DNA from: Candidatus Bathyarchaeia archaeon
GTDB taxonomy: Archaea; Thermoproteota; Bathyarchaeia; Bathyarchaeales; Bathycorpusculaceae
DNA: 64,000 nt
Assembly (NCBI GenBank): GCA_038883775.1
Contig: JAVZLM010000008.1
Span: forward strand, 62,618 to 126,617
Direction: 5' to 3'
Shown: in pieces, positions 951 to 21,426 of the stretch
Position numbering within the stretch: the stretch's first letter is position 1
How the letters are laid out: every line of letters starts with the position of its first letter
Program-made: the position numbers and the translations under genes
Notes under the pieces: model-generated
What the model saw: the letters and a program-made list of their open reading frames with translations, nothing else
Database searches by the model: none
Told to the model about the DNA's origin: nothing

Positions 951-1850
951 ATGTCCTCTGCTGAAATCGCCGTTCAAGTGTTCCGCACACTAGAAAATGA
1001 AGACATTAGAATACTGCAAGTCATAGAAGCAGCAAAAAGCAAACATGAATTTGTTCCAAAAGAAATTATAGCAAAATATGCAAAATTCAGCCCAGAAGAA
1101 ACAGAATTTCGCCTAAACCGCCTAAACAAATTAAAACTCGTATACAGAATGAAGGGCGCCTATGTGGGCTACACGCTAAATTATGCGGGCTACGATTGTT
1201 TAGCAATAAACGCCCTCGTAAAAGCTGGAATAATCGAAGCCTTCGGAAAACCTTTAGGCGTAGGCAAAGAAGCGGACGTTTACGACGCCCTAAACCCAAA
1301 AGGCGAAAGAATAGCCGTAAAATTCCATAGACTGGGCAGAATAAGCTTTCGCCAAACAATAAGAAAAAGAGGCTACATAACTGAGCATGCCAACTGGCTT
1401 TATCAATCAAGACTTGCCGCAGAAAAGGAATTTGAAGCCTTAAAACTTGTCTTTCCATGCGGTGTTGCTGTTCCGAAACCCATAAGCCAAAACCGCCACG
1501 TCCTAGTCATGGGAATGATTGAAGGCGCAGAACTGGCCGAATACAAGGAAATTCCAAAACCAGAAAAAATTCTCAAAGAAATATTGCGTAATGTTAGAAA
1601 AGCCTATTTCAAAGCTGGTGTAATCCACGCAGACCTAAGCGAATACAATGTTCTCTTAAAGCCTAACATGCACATCCTAATCATAGACTGGCCCCAATAC
1701 GTTAGAAAAGAGCATCCTAATGCCCAACAACTTCTAACAAGGGATGTCAAGAACATTCTGGAATATTTTAAGCGCAAGCACATGGTGAAAATAAAACTGA
1801 AAGAAGCCTTAGAATATGTGGCTGGTAAAAGCAGAATAATAAGCGCTTAA
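951..1850 (+). CDS. rio2: RIO2-type serine/threonine kinase
   Basis: N-terminal winged helix, GVGKEADVY, HADLSEYN and IIDWPQ motifs; ATG at 951 chosen as start. Confidence 0.93.
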   Translation: MSSAEIAVQVFRTLENEDIRILQVIEAAKSKHEFVPKEIIAKYAKFSPEETEFRLNRLNKLKLVYRMKGAYVGYTLNYAGYDCLAINALVKAGIIEAFGKPLGVGKEADVYDALNPKGERIAVKFHRLGRISFRQTIRKRGYITEHANWLYQSRLAAEKEFEALKLVFPCGVAVPKPISQNRHVLVMGMIEGAELAEYKEIPKPEKILKEILRNVRKAYFKAGVIHADLSEYNVLLKPNMHILIIDWPQYVRKEHPNAQQLLTRDVKNILEYFKRKHMVKIKLKEALEYVAGKSRIISA

Positions 1851-2080
1851 TGCACATCAAGTACAATGTAGAGAATGTTGTTTCCCCGCAACAAAACATT
1901 CCCATAATTCGTGATTAACTGGTCTTCTCTGCACTCCGTCGCTCCTTCCAAAAGAATATTCATGTGACCATCACATTTAATCATCTTCCCCTTGTACTCG
2001 CATCCGTTTTTTAGCACTACGGCAATATTGGCATTTAACTGTTTAACAAGCACATTCAAAGGCTTCTTACTTGGCTCCAT
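1847..2080 (-). CDS. Sm-like (Lsm/SmAP) RNA-binding protein
   Basis: Sm1 (GKMIKCDGHMNILL) and Sm2 (LLRGNNI) motifs, 77 aa. Confidence 0.92.
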   Translation of the reverse strand: MEPSKKPLNVLVKQLNANIAVVLKNGCEYKGKMIKCDGHMNILLEGATECREDQLITNYGNVLLRGNNILYIVLDVH

Positions 2081-2132
2081 GACAGCACCAGATGATTATT
2101 TACCTTAATACTCATATCCAAAACCACCAAAT

Positions 2133-2145
2133 ATAAAAGTTTTAT
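2133..2145. repeat. Left target-site duplication ATAAAAGTTTTAT
   Basis: Exact direct copy at 7619-7631; abuts the left terminal inverted repeat. Confidence 0.85.
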
Positions 2146-2166
2146 CCCCAAACCCAAACCCAAACT
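2146..2166 (+). repeat. Left terminal inverted repeat C(CCCAAA)3CT
   Basis: ccccaaacccaaacccaaact; reverse complement of the right end apart from unit number and terminal base. Confidence 0.85.
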
Positions 2167-2228
2167 TTAAAAATTGAGACCGAAGAACCGTGCAGAAGTA
2201 GACCAAAAGCACTCAGAGAAAGCGCATA

Positions 2229-2573
2229 ATGTTTATATTACCCTCCCCGAGACATCGATTTATGGGCAACTTTAACGTTTTATATCTTAATCAGATTATT
2301 TGTATTGCAATTGCGTTGAATGAACATGGAATTTTGTTGAACCTTGATGATATGCAAATGGGTAGATTAAGTCCGAAACTTTTGGGGGACATAAACATCG
2401 TTCCAATATCTCGGATATATCCTATTCAATTAACTTTGGAAGTGAAAGAAAAAATGAAATCCATTGGTATTGTTGATTTTTGGGATTATTTATTTTACCA
2501 AGAAACAAAAATTAGACAAGAGAAGAAAGACAAAATTGGACGAAGGTCCAGGAAAAGACTTTGGATATTTTAA
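2229..2573 (+). CDS. Hypothetical protein (element cargo)
   Basis: 114-aa ORF just inside left TIR; no recognisable motif. Confidence 0.45.
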   Translation: MFILPSPRHRFMGNFNVLYLNQIICIAIALNEHGILLNLDDMQMGRLSPKLLGDINIVPISRIYPIQLTLEVKEKMKSIGIVDFWDYLFYQETKIRQEKKDKIGRRSRKRLWIF

Positions 2574-2582
2574 ACGTAAACG

Positions 2583-2682
2583 TAAACATTGAAACCTTTT
2601 AGCATGAACGTTTTATTATGGATATTTTCCATAGAAAAGCATGGAAAAGGTATGGAAAAGAAACGTTCCTTTTTAATGTTTA
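2583..2682. repeat. Nested inverted repeats (candidate origin or bidirectional terminator)
   Basis: Arms 2583-2594/2671-2682 (11/12), 2606-2613/2661-2668 (8/8), 2625-2633/2651-2659 (9/9). Confidence 0.55.
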
Positions 2683-2684
2683 GG

Positions 2685-3188
2685 TTAAAGTTCAGAACAT
2701 TTTAAAATAGGTTCAGTTTTAAGTTTAGGTTTTTGTTCAAGTCTTCTAATAATGCCCTTGACGATTTTTCTGTAAGCCAAAAACTCAGCAATTTGGTTCT
2801 CTTGAGAGCCATATCTAAACACAATGCGTGGCTCAGGCTTATCCTTCTTCGCAGAAACTCTGAGAGTGCTTCCTTCTTTAATTGCTTGCATAGTAAACCA
2901 TTTCTGAAGATTTTTGTTCTGGGAGAGTAGGCTAACCCAAGCCATGATTTTAACGTTCTTTTCCCATGAAACCTTTTTGTCAAAAACGACATGATAACTG
3001 TTTTTTGAGCTTTTGAGAATAATGAACCCTTTTAATTTGAACCATCGCATTGTTCTCATCGCCCAATATTTGACGGTTCTAAACTTGGTTTTATCAAAGT
3101 CAAGTTTAACCGTATTTTTGTCGGTTATTCCCATGATGAAAGGCAAATTGTTGTTTTCAGCTTTCGATTTCTTTTTCAATCCATTCAC
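2685..3188 (-). CDS. Minimal archaeo-eukaryotic primase (AEP/Prim-Pol)-like protein
   Basis: VKLDFD (motif I DxD), KSSKNSYHVVF (motif II His), TLRVS; third acidic residue not obvious. Confidence 0.6.
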   Translation of the reverse strand: MNGLKKKSKAENNNLPFIMGITDKNTVKLDFDKTKFRTVKYWAMRTMRWFKLKGFIILKSSKNSYHVVFDKKVSWEKNVKIMAWVSLLSQNKNLQKWFTMQAIKEGSTLRVSAKKDKPEPRIVFRYGSQENQIAEFLAYRKIVKGIIRRLEQKPKLKTEPILKCSEL

Positions 3189-3468
3189 CTTCTAAGCCAT
3201 ATTTTTCTGGATTTTCTAAGAAGCTTTTAGCCGAAACATGAACAAACCCTTTTGGCATGAATTGATGCGCCTTAATCACGGCTTTGTAAAGCTCTTTTCC
3301 TTTACCATGAAACTCATATCTTCCACTTTGCTCAATTGTTTTGGTTCTCTTAGTCTTTTTCCAATACCTTTGACGTATTCCGTCTTTGCGTGTTTTCCAA
3401 TATCTTTGACGCACATAAACCTTAGCTTCATAAGAACCGTAAACAGCTATCTTTTTCGTTTCAGCCAT
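3157..3468 (-). CDS. Basic hypothetical protein with duplicated RQRYWK motif
   Basis: GGTGA SD before ATG at 3468; co-oriented, overlapping operon layout. Confidence 0.65.
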   Translation of the reverse strand: MAETKKIAVYGSYEAKVYVRQRYWKTRKDGIRQRYWKKTKRTKTIEQSGRYEFHGKGKELYKAVIKAHQFMPKGFVHVSAKSFLENPEKYGLEGEWIEKEIES

Positions 3469-3492
3469 TAACATCACCTTTATCTCTTAATC

Positions 3493-4023
3493 TTAAGGTA
3501 AAATCGCATTTTTTCTCGAAGATTTAGCCTTCTTTTTGTGCCATAAACCGTATTTATGTCTAATTTTCAAAATTGCTATAAACAATTTGTCTAAAACTTC
3601 AATTGAAAGCTCTTGTGCTATCCATTTTTCCGTTTGCGGATTACTTACTGTAACAAATTTCGTAGCTGGGCATTTTTTATCGTGGAAAACCGTAATAAGC
3701 CATTTTTCAACCCAGAATTCAAACTCTCTCTCCAAATTTGGGTTTTTATCAAGACGCTTAAACGTAGCATCCTTAATCGTTCCAATCTTAACAGGCAAAC
3801 CACTCTTAGTTTTCCCTTTAATATGCAAATCCTTAAACTCAATTGGAAAAGGTTGCGGAATCCAAGGCTCTGGAATCTTACTCTTAAGAGTAAAATACGT
3901 TAATATCCATTGTTTCTGCTCATCTTCACTCATACTTTTCCAATCCTTAGGAAAAACAACATCTTCAAAAGCCACACTTACCCACCTTTCCCATTCTCTC
4001 AAGAAGCCAAGCTTCAACACCAC
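3493..4023 (-). CDS. Hypothetical protein (element)
   Basis: 176-aa ORF in the leftward operon; true start may be GTG at 3975. Confidence 0.6.
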   Translation of the reverse strand: MVLKLGFLREWERWVSVAFEDVVFPKDWKSMSEDEQKQWILTYFTLKSKIPEPWIPQPFPIEFKDLHIKGKTKSGLPVKIGTIKDATFKRLDKNPNLEREFEFWVEKWLITVFHDKKCPATKFVTVSNPQTEKWIAQELSIEVLDKLFIAILKIRHKYGLWHKKKAKSSRKNAILP

Positions 4024-4375
4024 TAAGGAAATCAGAAAAAGAGAGATATTGAACCCATTGATAGCGAACTTTCAGTTTTTGCTTTAGCTTTTTTGTTGGA
4101 ATATCACCTTCAAGCCACTCATTAACCCAAAACTGCCTTTCAGCATTAGGCATAGGCTCTAAAACCAAATAACGACGCTTTCGATAGTCAAGCTCAATGG
4201 CTAAAACATGGTTGTCTCTCATATATCGCTTAAGCAAAGGCTTAATCTGTTCAACTGCATACCTTAACGTTTCTCGCTTATGTTTTGAAGTAGGCTTTAC
4301 CTTATCAAAAGCTTCTTTTGTCAAACGTAAAGCTTTTAACTGACCTTCAACATTTATACTCATATCTAACCACAT
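3965..4375 (-). CDS. Hypothetical protein (element)
   Basis: 136-aa ORF in the leftward operon. Confidence 0.6.
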   Translation of the reverse strand: MWLDMSINVEGQLKALRLTKEAFDKVKPTSKHKRETLRYAVEQIKPLLKRYMRDNHVLAIELDYRKRRYLVLEPMPNAERQFWVNEWLEGDIPTKKLKQKLKVRYQWVQYLSFSDFLSGVEAWLLERMGKVGKCGF

Positions 4376-4413
4376 CCTTTTTCTTTTGTAAACTTTGAAA
4401 GTCAGTGAAGACG

Positions 4414-4932
4414 TTAGTCTTCTTCTGTTTCTTCGCTTTCTTCAGTTGAAAACCAAGCGTATTGTTCTTCTGAAGGTTCTAAAGGCTCAAATTTCTCTGC
4501 AAACTCTTCAAGCGAAGGCTTAATGAAATAGCCTTCATACCCTATTTGCAGTTTTTCTTTGACTTTTCTCCATTGTTCAGGCGTTAAGTCCTTAAGCTTC
4601 CATCCCTTTTCGCTAAACTTAGCAATGAAACCGTCTTCGCCATCTATCTCAAAACCACCATAGTAAGTTGTGCATTCATTGAGTAATGCATCAAGTTCTT
4701 TATCTGGAATAACAGCCTCTGGATTAGGTTCAGCGGGTTTTTCTATCTCTTCAAAGTATTTTCTGAGAGCCTCACGCACTATTGAGCCTCTGCTTACGTC
4801 TCTTTCGTAGGCTAAATCCTTCAGTTTTTTGAGCCATTTTTCTGGAAGCATTATTTGAACACGCACTAAAGACTCATCGCTATCCAAGTCGGGAACTTTT
4901 TTCATTTCCAAATCTTCAATTTTTTCGGACAT
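4414..4932 (-). CDS. Ribbon-helix-helix (CopG-like) DNA-binding protein with acidic C-terminal domain
   Basis: VRVQIMLPEKWLKKLKDLAYERDVSRGSIVREALRKYF fits the RHH pattern; GAGGT SD. Confidence 0.8.
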   Translation of the reverse strand: MSEKIEDLEMKKVPDLDSDESLVRVQIMLPEKWLKKLKDLAYERDVSRGSIVREALRKYFEEIEKPAEPNPEAVIPDKELDALLNECTTYYGGFEIDGEDGFIAKFSEKGWKLKDLTPEQWRKVKEKLQIGYEGYFIKPSLEEFAEKFEPLEPSEEQYAWFSTEESEETEED

Positions 4933-4984
4933 ACTTATCTACCTCATAAATTACCTAATTACCGAAAGATTAATAAACCCTACC

Positions 4985-4998
4985 GTAACTATAGTTAC
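4985..4998. promoter_or_regulatory. Perfect 14-bp palindrome GTAACTATAGTTAC, candidate operator in divergent promoter
   Basis: Lies between divergent RHH and wHTH genes. Confidence 0.55.
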
Positions 4999-5012
4999 CT
5001 TAGGGATACGTA

Positions 5013-5549
5013 ATGAAAGAAAGAATGGGAGAAAAATCGGTTCAAATAGGCAAAAGAAACAAAGCCAAAATTATAGCTGAACTAATCAAAAATCCAATGA
5101 CATTCACGGAATTGAAAGAAACCTTAGACTTCTCAGCAAAAACTCTGATGTTTCATTTAAGAGATTTGGAAAATGAAGGTTTAATACGACGAATTTTAGA
5201 AGGAAAATCCATTCTTTATGATGTCATAAAACCGAAAAGCGTCATTGAGCTTAGAAAACAATTCCTTTCAGAACTTCTAAACTTAAAAGCCTACGATGTA
5301 GCTTTAAACGAAAAGACAAAAGCATTATACTATCAATTTTTGAAAACTCTCAAAGAAAGCATTGAAAAGCCAGAACCAGAAGCAAAAACCACAAAAATCA
5401 TAGCTAAAACCATTGAAATTCCAAAAGGATTCAAAGGAACAATAAAACAAAAGATAACCAATATGTATGAAAAACCAGAGCTAAAAGAAACCGAAACCGA
5501 ACAGTTGAAACCTTATTCCATGAAAAGAAAAAAGAAGGTGAGAACATGA
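5013..5549 (+). CDS. Winged helix-turn-helix protein (ArsR/HxlR-like)
   Basis: PMTFTELKETLDFSAKTLMFHLRDLENEGLI; ATGA overlap with cas1. Confidence 0.8.
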   Translation: MKERMGEKSVQIGKRNKAKIIAELIKNPMTFTELKETLDFSAKTLMFHLRDLENEGLIRRILEGKSILYDVIKPKSVIELRKQFLSELLNLKAYDVALNEKTKALYYQFLKTLKESIEKPEPEAKTTKIIAKTIEIPKGFKGTIKQKITNMYEKPELKETETEQLKPYSMKRKKKVRT

Positions 5550-6631
5550 GAGCAAAGCTTCAGAGAATCGTTATAGATAATTGTGGCTCGTATTTAGGAA
5601 TGCAGAAAGGCTGTTTTGTTGTTAAGGATAGAGAAGGTAATGTTCAAAGGTTTCCAATGTTTGAGAATGAAATCGGCGAAATTGTCTTGACAGGTGGGAA
5701 CTTTGTTAGCACAAGTGTTTTAGCGTCTTGTGGTTTCTGGGATATTCCAATAACTATTATGACAAAGAACTTTAAGCCTATTGCTGTTCTTAAAAGCTTA
5801 GATGATGATAGCCATGTTAAGACACGCATTGCTCAATATGAAGCGTTAAAGAATGGAAAAGGCATAACCATAGCCAAAACCATTGTAGAGTCAAAAATTG
5901 AAAGCCAAAACATAATCCTCAAAAGATATTCACTCAAACAACTTGACATTATGACTTTGAAAGCCAAAATTGAAAAGTTAGAATCCAATAACCTTAAAGA
6001 CTTGAGAAAAAGGCTCTTACCGATAGAAGGCAAAGCTTCAGAACACTATTTCCATGAAATCTTTAAGCTGTTTCCAAAAGCCATTAGAACAGAACAAAGA
6101 AAAACTTGGAAGGCTTATGATAGTTTAAACAACACTTTCAACTTAGCCTATACGCTTTTGAAGTTTAGAGTTCACTCTGCAATTTTGAAGGCTCACTTAG
6201 AACCTTACTTAGGGTTCATGCATTCAGAACAACATGGTAAGCCTTCTTTGGTTTGCGATTTTTGTGAGCTTTACCGCTACATAATAGACTCATTCCTAAT
6301 TGACTTCTCGCAAAATCTAAAACCCAAAGATTTCATTGTTAAAACTGAATGGTATTCCACGAATCGTTTAGGCAAAAGGCAAGTTTTGAACCGTGAAAAG
6401 ACTAAGGAATTAACTGAAAATCTTAATCGGTTCTTTGAGACAAAAGTGCCAATAAGCAGAATAAGATACGGTTTTAAACAGCAAATTGAAACATTGATTA
6501 ATGAAGAGGCTTTGCTTTTTGCGAAGTATCTTCGAGACGAAAGGGAACAATGGATTCCACGCATCATTCAACTAAACCCTTTTTTCCATCCACGTTTTAT
6601 GCGTATGAGAAAAAACTTTTTATCTTTTTAA
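5546..6631 (+). CDS. cas1: Solo Cas1 endonuclease/integrase (casposase-like)
   Basis: N-terminal GSYLG beta-domain; catalytic E (IEGKAS), H (LGFMH), D/E (SLVCDFCELYR); NNTFNLAY helix. Confidence 0.93.
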   Translation: MRAKLQRIVIDNCGSYLGMQKGCFVVKDREGNVQRFPMFENEIGEIVLTGGNFVSTSVLASCGFWDIPITIMTKNFKPIAVLKSLDDDSHVKTRIAQYEALKNGKGITIAKTIVESKIESQNIILKRYSLKQLDIMTLKAKIEKLESNNLKDLRKRLLPIEGKASEHYFHEIFKLFPKAIRTEQRKTWKAYDSLNNTFNLAYTLLKFRVHSAILKAHLEPYLGFMHSEQHGKPSLVCDFCELYRYIIDSFLIDFSQNLKPKDFIVKTEWYSTNRLGKRQVLNREKTKELTENLNRFFETKVPISRIRYGFKQQIETLINEEALLFAKYLRDEREQWIPRIIQLNPFFHPRFMRMRKNFLSF

Positions 6632-6659
6632 TCGAAAGGATACTGTGAAGAGATGAGTA

Positions 6660-7568
6660 TTGGTGGTAAATAAACTGGCAATCGCAGGAAGCATTGTTGC
6701 TTTTATTAGTTTGCTTTTCCCGTGGTGGTCTCTCGAAGCTAGTATTGTTGGAGTGTCCCCAGTAACTTTCCACGTATATCCTGGATGGTTCAGTGGTAAT
6801 CTAAATGATGTGGTTAATGTTTTTCGTAAACTTGACATAACTCTCGGCGTAAATTTTTTCGAAGAGTGCGTAGGTGCATTAGCAACGTTTGGTATACTAT
6901 TTTGTTCAGGGATTCTCTTTGCATTGATTGGAGCTTTTATCAGAAGTAACATGGGAAGGGGAATTATTGCACTCGGGTTTTTCTTAATCTTATGTGGTAT
7001 TTATGGTTTTTGTTACACATGGAACAAACTATTTTACCTATTACAAACTCCTATTTCATTTTCACATTCTGAATTGTCACCATTATTTTCTGTTACGTGG
7101 GGTTGGTCATATGGTCTCTATATCGCCATCTTTGCTTTCCTTTTATTGTTGGTGAGTGTTGCATTTCATCCAGTAGAAGTTAAAGCAAAAGAAGAAGTAG
7201 AAATTGAAAAAAAGCCTTCAGAGCAAAAACATATATTCAATAGGACCAAAAAAAGGACCTATTTAGAGTCGATAATGGAAGCACGAGCAAGGGAGATGGG
7301 TCCACCTCCTCCTCCACCTCCTCCTCTCCTATGTAGATTAAGGCTTCATCGGTGGAGGTATTATGGTCAAGATGTTGTGGTTACTGTTCGAGAATACGTA
7401 AAGGTTGGAGACGCACGTATACCAGTTAATGAAGGAGTGAAGCTCATTAATAATAAAAGAAAATGTGCACGATGTGGTATAAAACAAGAGGCAAACATTT
7501 TTACTAACGAAGATGGAACACTCTCTATGAGAGGATGGAGAGAGTCGAATAATTCGCAAGGTGATTAG
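6660..7568 (+). CDS. Membrane protein with poly-Pro linker and C-terminal Cys/His zinc-ribbon-like domain (element cargo)
   Basis: About four hydrophobic segments, Pro8 run, LLCRLRLHRW...RKCARCG. Confidence 0.7.
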   Translation: MVVNKLAIAGSIVAFISLLFPWWSLEASIVGVSPVTFHVYPGWFSGNLNDVVNVFRKLDITLGVNFFEECVGALATFGILFCSGILFALIGAFIRSNMGRGIIALGFFLILCGIYGFCYTWNKLFYLLQTPISFSHSELSPLFSVTWGWSYGLYIAIFAFLLLLVSVAFHPVEVKAKEEVEIEKKPSEQKHIFNRTKKRTYLESIMEARAREMGPPPPPPPPLLCRLRLHRWRYYGQDVVVTVREYVKVGDARIPVNEGVKLINNKRKCARCGIKQEANIFTNEDGTLSMRGWRESNNSQGD

Positions 7569-7591
7569 TCAGTCTTGCACACCCCCTCGTT

Positions 7592-7618
7592 AGTTTGGGT
7601 TTGGGTTTGGGTTTGGGA
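7592..7618 (+). repeat. Right terminal inverted repeat AG(TTTGGG)4A
   Basis: agtttgggtttgggtttgggtttggga; inverted counterpart of 2146-2166. Confidence 0.85.
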
Positions 7619-7631
7619 ATAAAAGTTTTAT
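7619..7631. repeat. Right target-site duplication ATAAAAGTTTTAT
   Basis: Exact direct copy of 2133-2145. Confidence 0.85.
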
Positions 7632-7806
7632 GAAAAACTATTCCGAAAAATAAAGCAAATTAATTCGTCTTTCCAAATTCTAAAGCTTTTTCCAAAATAA
7701 ATCGCTTTTTCGCAAAGACTTATTTAGAAAACTCAAATTTAAAGGAGAAAATGTTCCCAAAGAATTAAAACGAGAAAGTTTCCTATTGCATAATGGAGGA
7801 TAAAAC

Positions 7807-9330
7807 ATGCATGAAGTGCACGTTGACGGAGAAACCTTAACCATCGAAGACGTTGTAAAAGTTGCAAGAGAAAACGCAAAAGTCGTAATATTAGAAAAAG
7901 TAAAAGAGAAAGTGAAGAGAAGCCGAGAAGTTTTGGAAAAACTCGTCAAAGAAGGACAAATAATTTACGGCGTAAACACCGGCTTCGGCGCTTTAAGCAA
8001 CAAAATCATCACGCCCGAAGAAAACAGAAAACTGCAAACAAACCTCATCAGAAGCCACTCCACATGCGTTGGAAAAAACTTAAGCACAGAAATTGTCCGC
8101 GCCTTAATGCTTTTACGAGCGAATACGCTTGCTAAAGGATATTCTGGCATACGCTTAGAAACACTTGAAACCATAGTAGAAATGCTAAACAAGCGGGTAC
8201 ACCCAATAATCCCAGCAAAAGGCTCTGTTGGAGCAAGCGGCGACCTAGCCCCACTATCACACATGAGCTTGGTGCTTATAGGTGAAGGAAAAGCCGAATA
8301 CAAAGGCAAAACGATGAATGGAAAAGAGGCAATGGAAAAAGCCAACATAAAACCCATCCAACTAGAATTTAAAGAGGGCATAGCCCTAAACAACGGCACC
8401 CAACTAATGACAGCCATAGCTGCACTAACGGTTTATGACGCTGAAAACCTAATTAAAACAGCGGAAACTGCAGCAGCTTTAAGTCTCGAAGCATTGAATG
8501 GCGTTTCCGACGCCTTCCACGAAAAAATCCACAAAGTAAGACCACACAATGGACAAGCAATAACGGCAAAAAACATAAGAGAAATGATTATCGGAAGCCA
8601 ACTCGTCCAAACTGGAAAAGAAGCCTTTGAAAGGTTGAAGCATCCCCACGACCCCTACAGCCTAAGATGCATACCACAAATTTTGGGCGCCGCAAGAGAT
8701 GCCACCGCCTACGCAAGAAGGGTTGTGGAAATTGAAATCAACTCCGCCACAGACAATCCACTAATTTTTCCAGAAGAAGAACTCTGCCTTTCAGGAGGAA
8801 ACTTCCACGGGCAACCCATATCGCTTGCCATGGACATTCTCGGAATAGCCCTAACCATAATCGGCAACCTCTCAGAAAGAAGAACAGCAAGACTCCTCGA
8901 CGAAAAACTCAACAATGGCTTACCAGCCTTCTTAATCCCACCAGAGGCAAAAACAGGATTAAACAGTGGCTTAATGACCCTACAATATACAGCAGCCGCC
9001 CTAGCCTCAGAAAACAAGGTTTTAGCGCATCCAGCATGCGTAGACTCAATTCCAACATCAGCAAACTTCGAAGACTTCGTAAGCATGGGAACAACAGCAG
9101 CCCAAAAAGCCATGCAAATCCTAGAAAACACAGAGTATATAATAGCCATAGAACTTCTCTGCGCAGTCCAAGCAATAGACCTCCGAGGACCAGAAAAACT
9201 CGGAAAAGAAACCAAAAAAGCCTATTCAGCCATCAGAAAGATGGTGCCTATGCTTAAAGAAGATAGGGTATTAAGCGAAGACATAGAAAAAATTAAACGT
9301 GCTATGTATAATCTTTTAAGGCTTGAATAA
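7807..9330 (+). CDS. hutH: Histidine ammonia-lyase
   Basis: YGVNTGFG, MIO-forming GASGDLAPL, DPYSLRC, GGNFHG. Confidence 0.92.
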   Translation: MHEVHVDGETLTIEDVVKVARENAKVVILEKVKEKVKRSREVLEKLVKEGQIIYGVNTGFGALSNKIITPEENRKLQTNLIRSHSTCVGKNLSTEIVRALMLLRANTLAKGYSGIRLETLETIVEMLNKRVHPIIPAKGSVGASGDLAPLSHMSLVLIGEGKAEYKGKTMNGKEAMEKANIKPIQLEFKEGIALNNGTQLMTAIAALTVYDAENLIKTAETAAALSLEALNGVSDAFHEKIHKVRPHNGQAITAKNIREMIIGSQLVQTGKEAFERLKHPHDPYSLRCIPQILGAARDATAYARRVVEIEINSATDNPLIFPEEELCLSGGNFHGQPISLAMDILGIALTIIGNLSERRTARLLDEKLNNGLPAFLIPPEAKTGLNSGLMTLQYTAAALASENKVLAHPACVDSIPTSANFEDFVSMGTTAAQKAMQILENTEYIIAIELLCAVQAIDLRGPEKLGKETKKAYSAIRKMVPMLKEDRVLSEDIEKIKRAMYNLLRLE

Positions 9331-10301: not shown

Positions 10302-10434
10302 TCGGGCGGGCAGGATTTGAACCTGCGACACTCCGGTTTCCGCTTTGCGCTTGTGCGCTTGGTAGGCTGAAATGGGCACCCACCATGGGTGGATGTCTAC
10401 AGCCGGAAGCTCTACCAAGCTGAGCTACCGCCCG
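10302..10434 (-). tRNA. tRNA-Tyr(GTA) with 59-nt intron at 37/38 (10338-10396)
   Basis: C1:G72 and A73, stem TCCGG/CCGGA, loop CT-GTA-G|A, GGTTCAAATCC T arm, BHB central helix CUGU/GCGG. Confidence 0.93.
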
Positions 10435-12831: not shown

Positions 12832-12928
12832 TGGCGGGCCCGACGGGAATTGAACCCGTGACCCCCGGGTTTCTCTGCGTTTTTTGGCTTAAAAGCCCGG
12901 TGCTCTATCCTTACTGAGCTACGGGCCC
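12832..12928 (-). tRNA. tRNA-Lys(TTT) with 19-nt intron at 37/38 (12871-12889), CCA encoded
   Basis: GGGCCCG/CGGGCCC acceptor, CCGGG-CT-TTT-A|A-CCCGG, BHB helix CUUU/AGAG. Confidence 0.93.
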
Positions 12929-19967: not shown

Positions 19968-20040
19968 ACCCAACATCTCAGTAGCCATTAACTTTAGGAA
20001 AGATAAATATACGAGTAAATAACAATTACCCCCACCCAAA

Positions 20041-20136
20041 GGTTTGGGGGAGCTGGGTTATGACCCGGCTGAGAGGACGGCTGAAAGCCGTCGACCCCTA
20101 GAACCTGATCCGGATAATGCCGGCGGAGGGAAAACC
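20041..20136 (+). ncRNA. TPP (THI-box) riboswitch
   Basis: GGGG...GCTGAGA...ACCC...GAACCTGATCCGGATAATGCCGGCGGAGGGA consensus; P1 GGTTT/AAACC; directly upstream of thiamine salvage genes. Confidence 0.92.
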
Positions 20137-21426
20137 GTGAAAAAGAGTAAAAAGAAATTTGGCTTTAAGCTGCCTCCAGAATGGGGAGCAGATCCAGTAC
20201 CATCGGAAAAGAAGATTTTGGGGTTGTTTGATTATTTCATTTTATGGTCTAGCTTGGCTGTTGGTTTGCTTGTGCTTCAGGCTGGCGGTTTGCTTGTTCC
20301 TGGCTTGTCTTTGGTTGAAGCGGTTGCTGTGGCTGTTTTGGGTTCTGTTGTTGGTTCGTTGATGTTGGCTTTGGCTGGTGGTTTAGGAAGCAAATATGGC
20401 ATACCAACGATGGTGAGTTTGAGGGCGGTTTTGGGATTGAAGGGCTCTTTTGCTCCCACAATACTTAATGTGATTCAGCTTATTGGGTGGGCATCCTTCG
20501 AAATAATAATAATGGCAAATTCAGCCATAAGCATTACAGGCTCATTTTTAGGTCCATACACTTTATACTTTTGGATTATAGTTTTTGCAGTTTGGTGTTT
20601 TCTCTTATGTGTTGGAGGACCATTAGTTGTTATAAGACATTGGTTAGAAAAATTTGCCATCTGGTTCACTTATGGAACAGCCATCTACATAACCTACATA
20701 GTTCTTTCAAAATTCCCCCAGCTGTTGGCTTCGACTGGAGATGGCACTTTGTCCATACCACTAGCCTTAGACCTTGTTATAGCAATGCCAATATCATGGT
20801 GGCCATTAATATCAGATTATAACAGGTTTTCAAAAAGTGAAAAAGACGCTTTTCTAGGAACCCTTTCAGGCTATACTTTCGCAAACTCTTGGTTTTATGC
20901 TTTAGGCGCCTTGCTTGTTTTAGCTTATCCCGAAGAAAGCATAATTTACTCAATAGCTTCCATAACTTTTGGAGGTTTGGCTTTAACTTTGCTTTTGATG
21001 GATGAAACCGACAATTGCTTTGCAGACATATATTCTGGAGCTGTTTCTATACAAAATATCTCGCCAAAAACTAAACAACTAAAAATCGTTGCCGCAATAA
21101 CCGTTGTAAGCGCTTTATTAGCAGCTTTGATGCCTACTGAATGGCAAACAGCCTATGAAGGTTTCCTATTGTATATAGGAGCTGTTTTTGTCCCTTTGCT
21201 TGGCGTTCTTGCCGTGGACTTTTACCTAATCAGAAAAAGAGCATATAGCTTAGAAGAATTTTATTCTACGAGTAAAGGTTTAAGGGTTAAGCCCATAATT
21301 TCTTGGTTTATAGGCGTAATCGTATACTTCTACTTCATATTTTACAATTATACTACATGGGGTTCAAGCATACCATCCTTCATAATTTCCGCCTTTATGC
21401 TTTATGTTTTGGAGAAGGTGATTTGA
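20137..21426 (+). CDS. cytX: NCS1/cytosine-permease family transporter, CytX-like (putative HMP/thiamine precursor uptake)
   Basis: About 12 TM segments, MPISWWPLISDYNRF; GTG start after the riboswitch. Confidence 0.8.
   Translation: MKKSKKKFGFKLPPEWGADPVPSEKKILGLFDYFILWSSLAVGLLVLQAGGLLVPGLSLVEAVAVAVLGSVVGSLMLALAGGLGSKYGIPTMVSLRAVLGLKGSFAPTILNVIQLIGWASFEIIIMANSAISITGSFLGPYTLYFWIIVFAVWCFLLCVGGPLVVIRHWLEKFAIWFTYGTAIYITYIVLSKFPQLLASTGDGTLSIPLALDLVIAMPISWWPLISDYNRFSKSEKDAFLGTLSGYTFANSWFYALGALLVLAYPEESIIYSIASITFGGLALTLLLMDETDNCFADIYSGAVSIQNISPKTKQLKIVAAITVVSALLAALMPTEWQTAYEGFLLYIGAVFVPLLGVLAVDFYLIRKRAYSLEEFYSTSKGLRVKPIISWFIGVIVYFYFIFYNYTTWGSSIPSFIISAFMLYVLEKVI

Follow-up and report, generated by a model that had tools for sequence, protein, structure and literature searches.

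A 64,000-nt stretch of the genome of a hot-spring Bathyarchaeia archaeon (assembly GCA_038883775.1, contig JAVZLM010000008.1, positions 62,618 to 126,617; hereafter the window) contains, at positions 2146-7618, a block of 5473 bp which is a real mobile element, recently inserted. The block ends in inverted tandem repeats of the hexamer CCCAAA, it is flanked by an exact duplication of a 13-bp target that is present only once in genomes of the same genus, and Cas1 is its only candidate integrase: cas1 is the sole gene found in every complete copy of the family, and no other integrase family is detectable. We propose, with a probability of about 0.75, that the block is a casposon-like element of the "family 5" type, one that has moved recently and is now integrated, in which Cas1 performs the integration and in which DNA synthesis is supplied by a small protein resembling the archaeo-eukaryotic primases (AEP), acting as a pair with a basic protein predicted to form a long beta-hairpin.

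The insertion and its empty site

The host assembly comprises 1.69 Mb in 28 contigs (91% complete, 5% contamination). The element lies between a gene for an Lsm protein and a gene for an aromatic amino-acid lyase of the hutH type; the two genes are divergent and the insertion site is 53 bp upstream of the Lsm start codon. Its G+C content is 35.9%, against 39.7% for the whole window. The inverted arms of the termini (2147-2166 and 7592-7611) are 20 nt long and 100% complementary, and no part of the 1.69-Mb assembly other than the two ends of the element contains the hexamer terminus motif. Likewise, the 13-mer that adjoins both ends, ATAAAAGTTTTAT, is present in the block-flanking orientation at these two sites only. 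The 13-mer is near-palindromic and, from the window alone, could equally belong to the outer portion of a 33-nt inverted repeat (94% complementary).

The origin of the direct repeat is settled by related genomes. In a DNA search of 41 genomes (the host genome, G000, and 40 relatives), genomes of the same genus have the two flanks adjacent, in alignments that overlap by the 13 bases. An empty site, in which a single 13-mer joins the Lsm flank to the hutH flank, is found in four of the four congeners (G001-G004): the sequence of G004 reads ...CCACCAAATATAAAAGTTTTATGAAAAAC..., G001 departs from it by one mismatch and G002 by one flank difference, and G003 is identical to the locus end. A 936-nt contig from another hot-spring sequencing run also joins window position 2140 straight to position 7627, that is, with one copy of the 13-mer. 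As for the filled site, both of its junctions are spanned, with no differences, by independent contigs of the best-matching run, which is possibly the source sample. Because the empty sites hold a single 13-mer, the direct repeat is a duplicated target and the block is an insertion in this lineage. An earlier note on this DNA, made from the sequence alone, had postulated a Cas1-integrase element with inverted termini and an exact 13-bp target-site duplication around a 5473-bp block, and had suggested a search for the empty site in relatives; the sequence and the single-copy sites of the congeners bear out this description.

Two further joints (2080 to 7825 and 2089 to 7826) were considered as excision products and rejected: the contigs that contain them have a different intergenic sequence and are taken to come from other organisms. 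Two other readings of the 13-mer, as a piece of the inverted terminus or as the att core of a site-specific recombinase, were also rejected, because each element of the family has its own 13-mer, because the empty site holds one copy and because no recombinase other than Cas1 is present.

A family of compact Cas1 elements

The element has many relatives. When metagenomes were scanned with 17 aligned family members as the query, at least 536 of the 600 pattern-matching stretches examined proved to hold relatives. An element was scored as complete when at least two CCCAAA units were accompanied by an inverted run 1.2-25 kb away and by outside 13-mers with at most one mismatch. The scan for such elements covered the best 80 metagenomic loci and 13 further loci, and returned 23 rows corresponding to 22 distinct elements (L135 duplicates L019) of 1676-11451 bp; the remaining scanned loci are mostly short contigs, unable to contain both ends. 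Each end has 2-6 hexamer units, a number that varies even between the two ends of one copy. The flanking duplication is exact in 20 of the 22 elements and shows 0-1 mismatch overall.

Clustering of the open reading frames (ORFs) found Cas1 in all 22 complete elements and the AEP-like gene in 19 (it is missing from L020, L024 and L110). A basic 106-aa hairpin protein is encoded in 16, always just upstream of the AEP-like gene. A protein of 262-325 aa with a faint AAA-lid match and a small treble-clef zinc protein are each present in six elements, the winged-helix cluster of the window in four and its ribbon-helix-helix type in three; about ten elements have an ORF of some helix-turn-helix (HTH) family directly upstream of cas1, and 60 ORFs are singletons. 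The earlier note had rightly recognized that a small AEP-like gene is carried, and this gene now emerges as the second most conserved of the family; of the ribbon-helix-helix, winged-helix and AEP-like set that the note took as a signature, the AEP-like gene alone recurs in most elements. The ORFs submitted to Pfam were those of the window, 37 ORFs of the first related loci (some of them outside complete elements) and 113 ORFs of the other 17 elements: a family B DNA polymerase (PolB) was found in none of the 22 complete elements, nor was there a tyrosine or serine recombinase or a DDE transposase.

The order and orientation of the genes are fixed, the basic protein and the AEP-like protein being encoded toward the left end and the HTH-type ORF and cas1 toward the right, and additional genes are placed between these core modules and the termini. 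Since cas1 stops 61-71 bp from the right end in L080, L083 and L091, the position to the right of cas1 is one of variable cargo. The elements can be very small: L091 (1966 bp) contains the AEP-like gene and cas1 alone and L123 (1676 bp) contains these two genes and a 65-aa ORF. Cargo elsewhere in the family includes a methyltransferase, a lipocalin, a GNAT acetyltransferase, an RNase III and a 1633-aa STAND-like NTPase. The last of these is found in the largest element (L158 1227-12677, 11.5 kb), where the 1633-aa protein has faint STAND/AAA NTPase matches and is accompanied by RNase III-like cargo; this may be a defence-type passenger.

The target has a recognizable motif. Aligned on the element ends, the 22 duplications give the consensus nTWAAAnTTTTAY; many are partly palindromic, and their A+T content is 87%, against 61% in the 12-bp flanks. 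Some registers in the table of duplications are shifted by 1-3 bases, and the length of the duplication is 13-14 bp for the family and 13 bp for the window. In five of the 22 elements (L019 6736-6778, L112, L115, L131 and L158), the left flank is itself the right end of another, often degenerate, copy, and one element has a left end as its right flank. Because these flanks are the ends of other copies, the regenerated target is reused, giving layouts in which end, 13-mer and end follow one another. Classical casposons behave in the same way: their 14-bp duplication is AT-rich in part and can be shared by tandem copies (PMC4779613).

Further cas1 copies, 53-69% identical, stand beside the same hexamer termini in related genomes. 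At the protein level, a Cas1 search gave 1788 clusters at E<=1e-10, a profile-free search of 1.84 billion representatives gave 85 Cas1 matches at E<=1e-30, and a search of genome contigs with the single window Cas1 sequence gave three loci; among viral contigs there were three loci for the family Cas1 and none for the outgroup Cas1 P0147. Within a sample of 301 Bathyarchaeia genomes, the pattern of three terminal units is found in 19 genomes (the reversed-pattern control overlaps the repeat and is not independent), the AEP-like gene in 19, and a Cas1 that scores like that of the window in about 19 (229-bit threshold on an outgroup profile). The AEP-like gene and a cas1 of the family-5 type lie at most 5 kb apart on the same contig in eight genomes, and in one more as fragments. 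Several of the Bathyarchaeia copies carry internal stops.

A few individual loci deserve mention. The host genome itself has a second element running off a contig end (L031, C28:4752-5075), in which a CCCAAAA-type terminus stands beside an AT-rich 13-mer; it retains the last ~90 residues of a Cas1 87% identical to that of the window. Short remnants of Cas1 C termini with 74-82% identity are also present in the host genome, at C1:2685-2839 and C3:177168-177269. In the related genome G014, the end of contig C40 (L027 8534-8569) and the start of contig C43 (L028 26-55) have 5-6 hexamers, the same 20 inner bases in inverted orientation and the same outer 13-mer, and the assembly was probably broken inside one element at its long termini. 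Finally, L079, a 6.5-kb contig of a metagenome-assembled genome labelled Aenigmatarchaeota, encodes a Cas1 83% identical to that of the window and an AEP-like gene, so that the contig was either binned wrongly or received the element from another phylum. Every other relative that bears a name is from Bathyarchaeia, and the names of the near Cas1 relatives point to the same class for the host.

The features of the window's element are given in Table 1. Its genes form two operons: a rightward one with the winged-helix gene, cas1 and the gene of the 302-aa membrane protein, and a leftward one with the ribbon-helix-helix gene, two uncharacterised ORFs, the 106-aa basic protein and the AEP-like gene. 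Pfam scans of the ORFs and a repeat scan of positions 1900-7900 found no cas2, PolB or CRISPR array in the block, as the earlier note had stated; PF00136 and PF03175 have no match within it, and the scanned ORFs of the window include no tyrosine or serine recombinase and no DDE transposase.

Table 1. Termini, genes and flanking genes of the element (window positions).
Feature	Positions	Strand	Evidence and remarks
Lsm gene	1847-2080	-	PF01423, E 3.5e-18
Left copy of the 13-bp target-site duplication, ATAAAAGTTTTAT	2133-2145	.	Read from the sequence; single copy at empty sites
Left terminal inverted repeat, C + (CCCAAA)3 + CT	2146-2166	+	Inverted-repeat pair
114-aa ORF, doubtful gene, possibly cargo	2229-2573	+	No family match; no relative in other elements
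AEP-like protein, 167 aa, second core gene	2685-3188	-	PF24387, E 3.6e-5, sub-threshold
Basic 106-aa protein, long beta-hairpin (predicted), third core gene	3157-3477	-	Overlaps the start of the AEP-like gene
176-aa ORF of the leftward operon	3493-4023	-	No family match; overlapped by a 183-aa ORF on the opposite strand, call uncertain
136-aa ORF	3965-4375	-	Relative in one other element, L097
Ribbon-helix-helix protein, 172 aa, likely regulator	4414-4932	-	PF01402, E 1.6e-5, above cut-off
ArsR-type winged-helix protein, 178 aa	5013-5549	+	PF01022, E 1.9e-7; stop overlaps the cas1 start
Cas1-family integrase ("family 5" casposase type), 361 aa	5546-6631	+	PF01867, E 4.2e-51
Predicted membrane protein, 302 aa, proline run, cargo	6660-7568	+	No family match; no relative in other elements
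Right terminal inverted repeat, AG + (TTTGGG)4 + A	7592-7618	-	Inverted-repeat pair
Right copy of the 13-bp target-site duplication, ATAAAAGTTTTAT	7619-7631	.	Exact match to the left copy
Aromatic amino-acid lyase, hutH type	7807-9330		PF00221, E 9.6e-200

Elsewhere in the window, a thiamine pyrophosphate (TPP) riboswitch is found at 20036-20148 (+; 78.2 bits, E 9.8e-14, above the Rfam gathering score). Two tRNA matches on the reverse strand, at 10302-10434 and 12835-12928, are 133 and 94 nt long, beyond the length of a mature tRNA, and are likely intron-containing tRNA genes.

Cas1 between casposases and CRISPR adaptation

The window Cas1 is intact. The generic cas1 model TIGR00287 matches it with E 1.2e-50 and 172.5 bits (cut-off 71.7), and since this alignment reaches residue 333 of 361 there is no room for a fused C-terminal HTH domain. 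In an alignment of 31 sequences, the most divergent at 29% identity, three positions never vary (E161, H226 and D238) and a fourth, E241, is conserved to at least 90%; the four are the equivalents of the E. coli catalytic positions E141/H208/D218/D221 (PMC9939771). The description of an intact solo cas1 with its catalytic E/H/D-E residues, given in the earlier note, is therefore correct (PF01867, 4.2e-51).

We placed this protein in a quick maximum-likelihood tree of 81 rows, comprising the window Cas1, 8 element Cas1, 14 near homologues, 24 distant representatives, 30 rows sampled from genomes across the phylum and, as casposase references, 4 members of family 1, two of which lie 5 kb from a protein-primed PolB. 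All the element-borne Cas1 fall into one 30-row clade (support of 99 in the Shimodaira-Hasegawa-like approximate likelihood ratio test, SH-aLRT), itself nested in a 42-row clade (94) together with representatives lacking known context. One three-way node joins the 42-row clade to the four rows of family-1 casposases, on a branch of 2.31, and to a clade of 15 CRISPR-linked rows; a further 20 CRISPR-type rows lie beyond it. The CRISPR-linked Bathyarchaeia Cas1, whose loci carry cas2 and cas4, form a clade separate from that of the elements. By its sequence, then, the element Cas1 is a clade of its own, neither a stray from the local CRISPR system nor a demonstrable sister of the classical casposases.

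The possibility that the locus is a decayed remnant of a CRISPR-Cas adaptation module, or a domesticated solo Cas1 mimicking an insertion, is scarcely credible. Admittedly, the generic cas1 model is passed, the best match among solved structures is a CRISPR Cas1 (4n06, 2.3e-20) ahead of the M. mazei casposase (6opm, 6.3e-15), and the genome does contain cas1, cas2 and cas4 together on contig C17. However, no subtype-specific Cas1 model of NCBIfam is passed (Cas4g/Cas1g 133.7 bits vs 560, I-D 127.5 vs 385), the block has inverted termini and a duplication but neither cas2 nor an array, and the Cas1 fragment of C17 is 93% identical to the Cas1 of L063, a member of the cas2/cas4-linked clade and not of the element clade. 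Above all, the block is absent, with a clean single-copy site, from all four congeners; the empty sites refute this reading. The earlier note had itself named the nesting of Cas1 within CRISPR-associated clades as grounds for abandoning its proposal, and the tree shows no such nesting, the element-borne Cas1 having a clade of their own.

The CRISPR locus of the host may be described briefly. C17:1-1931 carries the last 68 residues of a Cas1, cas2 (PF09827, 5.3e-18), a UPF0175-like antitoxin-like gene, a PIN-like gene and cas4, and because of this cas1 fragment, cas2 and cas4 the genome has a CRISPR adaptation module, cut by the contig start. The absence of CRISPR components asserted by the earlier note thus holds for the block and fails for the genome. 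This cas2 is the only one of the genome, and contig C8 has no Cas2 match. No CRISPR array was found in the assembly as exact 24-mers repeated at least three times, arrays often being left unassembled. The sole site with such 24-mers is C4:38703-39198, at least four copies of a repeat with a period of ~156 nt, a spacing that is not CRISPR-like.

The element resembles the adaptation Cas1 of archaeal type I CRISPR systems in several respects: the fold, the catalytic residues, the generic Cas1 models strongly passed and an integration that duplicates the target. A palindromic AT-rich 13-mer regenerated at each insertion, with copies in tandem, also resembles a rudimentary repeat-insert-repeat array. 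Unlike CRISPR adaptation, there is no Cas2 and no leader or array, the insert is the element itself, and the Cas1 belongs to a separate clade.

How does the element compare with known casposons? In the sense used by Krupovic and colleagues in 2014, a casposon is said to combine a Cas1-family integrase, terminal inverted repeats, a target duplication and a family B polymerase, and for this last reason is reportedly termed "self-synthesizing". The window's element has a catalytic Cas1, inverted repeats and a target duplication, and lacks the polymerase. It shares with the classical casposons (families 1-4) a Cas1-family integrase as the sole recombinase and terminal inverted repeats. In both, moreover, the target is AT-rich and partly conserved, a duplicated site is used again when copies integrate in tandem, and solo ends occur. 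The 13-bp duplication is close in length to those of M. mazei (14 bp) and, in vitro, of A. boonei (15 bp; PMC4779613, PMC9939771). The differences are the defining PolB, found in none of the 22 elements, a far smaller size (1.7-11.5 kb against about 8-20 kb), termini made of short tandem hexamers in 2-6 units, and a Cas1 that does not group with the family-1 casposases, the casposase family represented in the tree.

A closer counterpart was proposed by Salgado et al. in 2022 (PMC9755687). Under the name "family 5 casposases", these authors described six solo Cas1 of hot-spring metagenomes that lie near subtype I-A; they retain the catalytic residues, have no C-terminal HTH and, in some contigs, are accompanied by inverted repeats. 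According to the same text, DNA polymerase B adjoins only the most distant member, Cas1_1244, the neighbours are "poorly conserved hypothetical proteins" and the elements were concluded to be non-self-replicative. By visual comparison, Cas1_938, Cas1_1200, Cas1_1269 and Cas1_1219 have the conserved blocks of the element family, and Cas1_1269 appears nearly identical to the L025 Cas1 of the 30-row clade. Judging by eye, then, and not from a computed alignment, the window Cas1 seems to belong to family 5. The other properties agree: a solo cas1 with its catalytic residues, no fused HTH, mostly no PolB, inverted termini in some and a hot-spring origin. The element is consequently a new member of a group already named, although its anatomy had hardly been described, and the "undescribed system" of the earlier note is not one.

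Relative to the literature searched, the conserved AEP-like partner, the duplication with its target motif, the tandem insertions, the Bathyarchaeia hosts and the empty sites are new. The hairpin protein that completes the AEP-like module, the hexamer termini and the number of metagenomic loci given above also go beyond what the family 5 text reports, and in the text of PMC9755687 the words "primase", "TSD" and "direct repeat" are all absent. Full-text searches found no paper linking casposons with Bathyarchaeia or Bathyarchaeota (one review mentions both, unconnected) and none pairing a casposase with a primase-polymerase (the only match was unrelated). Among the papers in which casposons and archaeo-eukaryotic primases both occur, PMC4779613, PMC6563490 and PMC8211822 deal with unrelated elements or with CRISPR-associated primase-polymerases (CAPPs).

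The PolB neighbour of Cas1_1244 raises the question of whether the elements arose by deletion from a casposon with PolB and are non-autonomous, a full-length relative mobilising or replicating them in trans. This is very improbable. Cas1_1244, the most distant member of family 5, does resemble, by eye, the outgroup representatives of our tree. However, PolB is absent from all 22 complete elements, which argues against the earlier note's own counter-scenario that every homologue would carry it, and the elements keep their own conserved gene set where a derivative would have random deletion end points. The host genome has no PF03175 match, and its two PF00136 matches, on contigs C5 and C1 (frames of 818 and 909 aa), are not beside cas1. 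In addition, an outgroup-type Cas1 is found in only one of the 301 Bathyarchaeia genomes sampled. It lies on a 5191-bp contig (G491:C92) with an HxlR-type HTH gene upstream of cas1 and a Schlafen/AlbA_2 fragment (Pfam scan of ORFs to position 2868); no inverted termini were found on this contig.

A putative primase-polymerase partner

The AEP-like protein has 984 relatives at E<=0.001, nearly all of them unnamed. The AEP family PF24387 matches the window protein with 24 bits (cut-off 27) and 33 of 56 relatives at E<=0.01, the best E being 3.6e-5. AEP catalytic sites are built from a DxD motif, a histidine motif and a third acidic motif. In the AEP-like family, D30-x-D32 and S60-S61-x3-Y65-H66 are invariant across 56 aligned sequences that extend down to about 41% identity, and Q101, K104, R110, K114 and K117 are also kept in the alignments (18, then 56 sequences).

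The AlphaFold2 model (predicted local distance difference test, pLDDT, 82; predicted template modelling score, pTM, 0.65) has a beta-alpha-beta-beta-alpha-alpha-beta core. Its best natural matches in Foldseek are AsfvPrimPol (8.2e-3, probability 0.99) and then LigD-type polymerase domains. In a comparison with VIA, the top row is 2atz, an uncharacterised H. pylori protein (Z 8.6), followed among AEP enzymes by a LigD polymerase (Z 7.2; 98 aligned residues, root-mean-square deviation 2.9), AsfvPrimPol (7.0), primase subunits of pol alpha (6.5 and 6.4), the RepB' primase (6.3), the Prim-Pol domain of a CAPP (7nqd, Z 5.7 over 105 residues), human PrimPol (5.6) and the P. horikoshii primase (5.4). 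The AEP rows are interleaved with small ferredoxin-like folds, and AEP enzymes dominate the long alignments. Viral models matching at 1.4e-3 and weaker are archaeal filamentous-virus proteins and primase-helicases, and a language-model search for look-alikes gave, as a lead only, a "primase 1D family" cluster at rank 26. The AEP-like profile found nothing among the sequences of solved structures, CAPPs included (best E 0.23, a myosin). Taken together, motifs and model suggest that the 167-aa protein likely has an AEP catalytic core. Its hairpin partner is modelled (pLDDT 82) as a long beta-hairpin next to a small alpha/beta unit; the model matches no known fold (best Z 3.2) and the sequence has no notable match in Pfam, NCBIfam or PHROG.

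A precedent for such a partnership exists in the CAPPs, AEP primase-polymerases that bind Cas1-Cas2 and perform strand-displacement synthesis (Zabrady et al. 2021, PMC8211822), and that can fill or displace strands at integration intermediates. In both cases a protein of AEP-like fold is genetically tied to a Cas1 integrase. The CAPPs differ in being larger and multi-domain and in residing in CRISPR-cas operons with cas2 and arrays, whereas the AEP-like gene is borne by a transposon with neither.

A working model can be suggested. By analogy with characterised casposases and with Cas1-Cas2, Cas1 would bind the (CCCAAA)n termini and join the terminal 3' ends to both strands of an AT-rich, roughly palindromic target with a 13-bp stagger, and gap filling at the staggered joints would then duplicate the 13 bp. 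The AEP-like protein and the hairpin protein may provide the synthesis that PolB performs in classical casposons, as their conservation, the motifs, the fold and the CAPP precedent suggest; this synthesis could be the gap filling at the joints, the copying of the element from its repeat termini, or both. The winged-helix protein, translationally coupled to cas1, may bind the ends, as the fused C-terminal HTH does in family-2 casposases. Cargo is acquired beside either end, and in this copy it is the 302-aa membrane protein. That terminal hexamers vary in number would be consistent with slippage or initiation on these repeats, although this is speculation.

Several observations weigh against the interpretation as a family-5 element with its own synthesis module. 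(i), none of the listed PF24387 matches among the 56 relatives reaches the gathering score, and the alignments contain no invariant third acidic residue for AEP motif III. (ii), Foldseek returns nothing at E<=0.001 for the model, and the VIA scores of annotated AEP enzymes (Z 5.4-7.2) are in a range that the tool calls common. (iii), the AEP-like gene is missing from three of the 22 complete elements, and 10 of the 19 AEP-like-positive genomes have no family-5 cas1 listed on that contig at E<=1e-40. (iv), the tree, a quick one whose casposase references are of family 1 and not of families 2-4, does not place the element clade nearer to casposases than to CRISPR Cas1, or the reverse. (v), the window Cas1 has 361 aa, against 343-346 aa in its relatives, owing to a C-terminal extension of 16-17 aa (6577-6631); this suggests that the stop codon was lost where the membrane-protein cargo joined. 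(vi), the sequencing-run evidence consists of assembled contigs only.

The main alternative is that the element is a cut-and-paste or host-replicated Cas1 transposon, in which Cas1 integrates as in the working model, host enzymes synthesise all the DNA and the AEP-like protein is a DNA-binding or regulatory accessory. Sub-threshold Pfam matches, the lack of a third conserved acidic residue and a length of 150-175 aa, far below that of the aligned AEP targets (256-391), are in its favour, as is the non-self-replicative transposition argued for in PMC9755687. Moreover, because L020, L024 and L110 lack the AEP-like gene and have intact ends and duplications, this gene is not needed in cis for integration. 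Yet we consider this alternative unlikely: the AEP-like gene is kept in 19 of the 22 elements, including the two-gene minimal one, with a fixed position and orientation, and DxD and H motifs that remain invariant in 56 sequences down to about 41% identity are the pattern of a catalytic site and not of a mere DNA binder. We thus favour the family-5 element in which Cas1 integrates and the AEP-like and hairpin pair supplies DNA synthesis.

It is possible to go further, although here the odds are against us. The family may be a distinct class of self-replicating Cas1 transposons, whose core of two genes, a mini primase-polymerase and Cas1, would suffice for copying and insertion. Helped by the hairpin protein, the AEP-like enzyme would initiate at the telomere-like (CCCAAA)n ends, which, if true, would explain why the ends have anything from 2 to 6 units and can differ within one copy. 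Repeat-insert-repeat arrays would be built because each insertion regenerates the palindromic 13-bp target, which is then reused. Casposons are the proposed ancestors of the CRISPR adaptation machinery and, to our knowledge, few have been studied, all of them PolB-bearing. If this tentative view were correct, no other living system would model so closely how a Cas1 transposon became a CRISPR adaptation module, and the elements would be a natural counterpart of the partnership between Cas1 and primase-polymerases in CAPP systems.

Family 5 has been presented in print as a set of non-self-replicative elements whose neighbours are not conserved, a picture that the conserved AEP-like partner already changes. 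Should the AEP-like protein prove inactive, the element would still be a well-delimited, compact Cas1 transposon with a defined target. The family is abundant, mobile on a recent time scale and reducible to a 2-kb unit of two genes. It therefore offers a very small system to understand how Cas1, with no Cas2 to help it, selects a short palindromic target and sets the stagger at 13 bp, whether PolB can be replaced by an AEP-type enzyme in a Cas1 element, and how tandem repeat-insert arrays arise.

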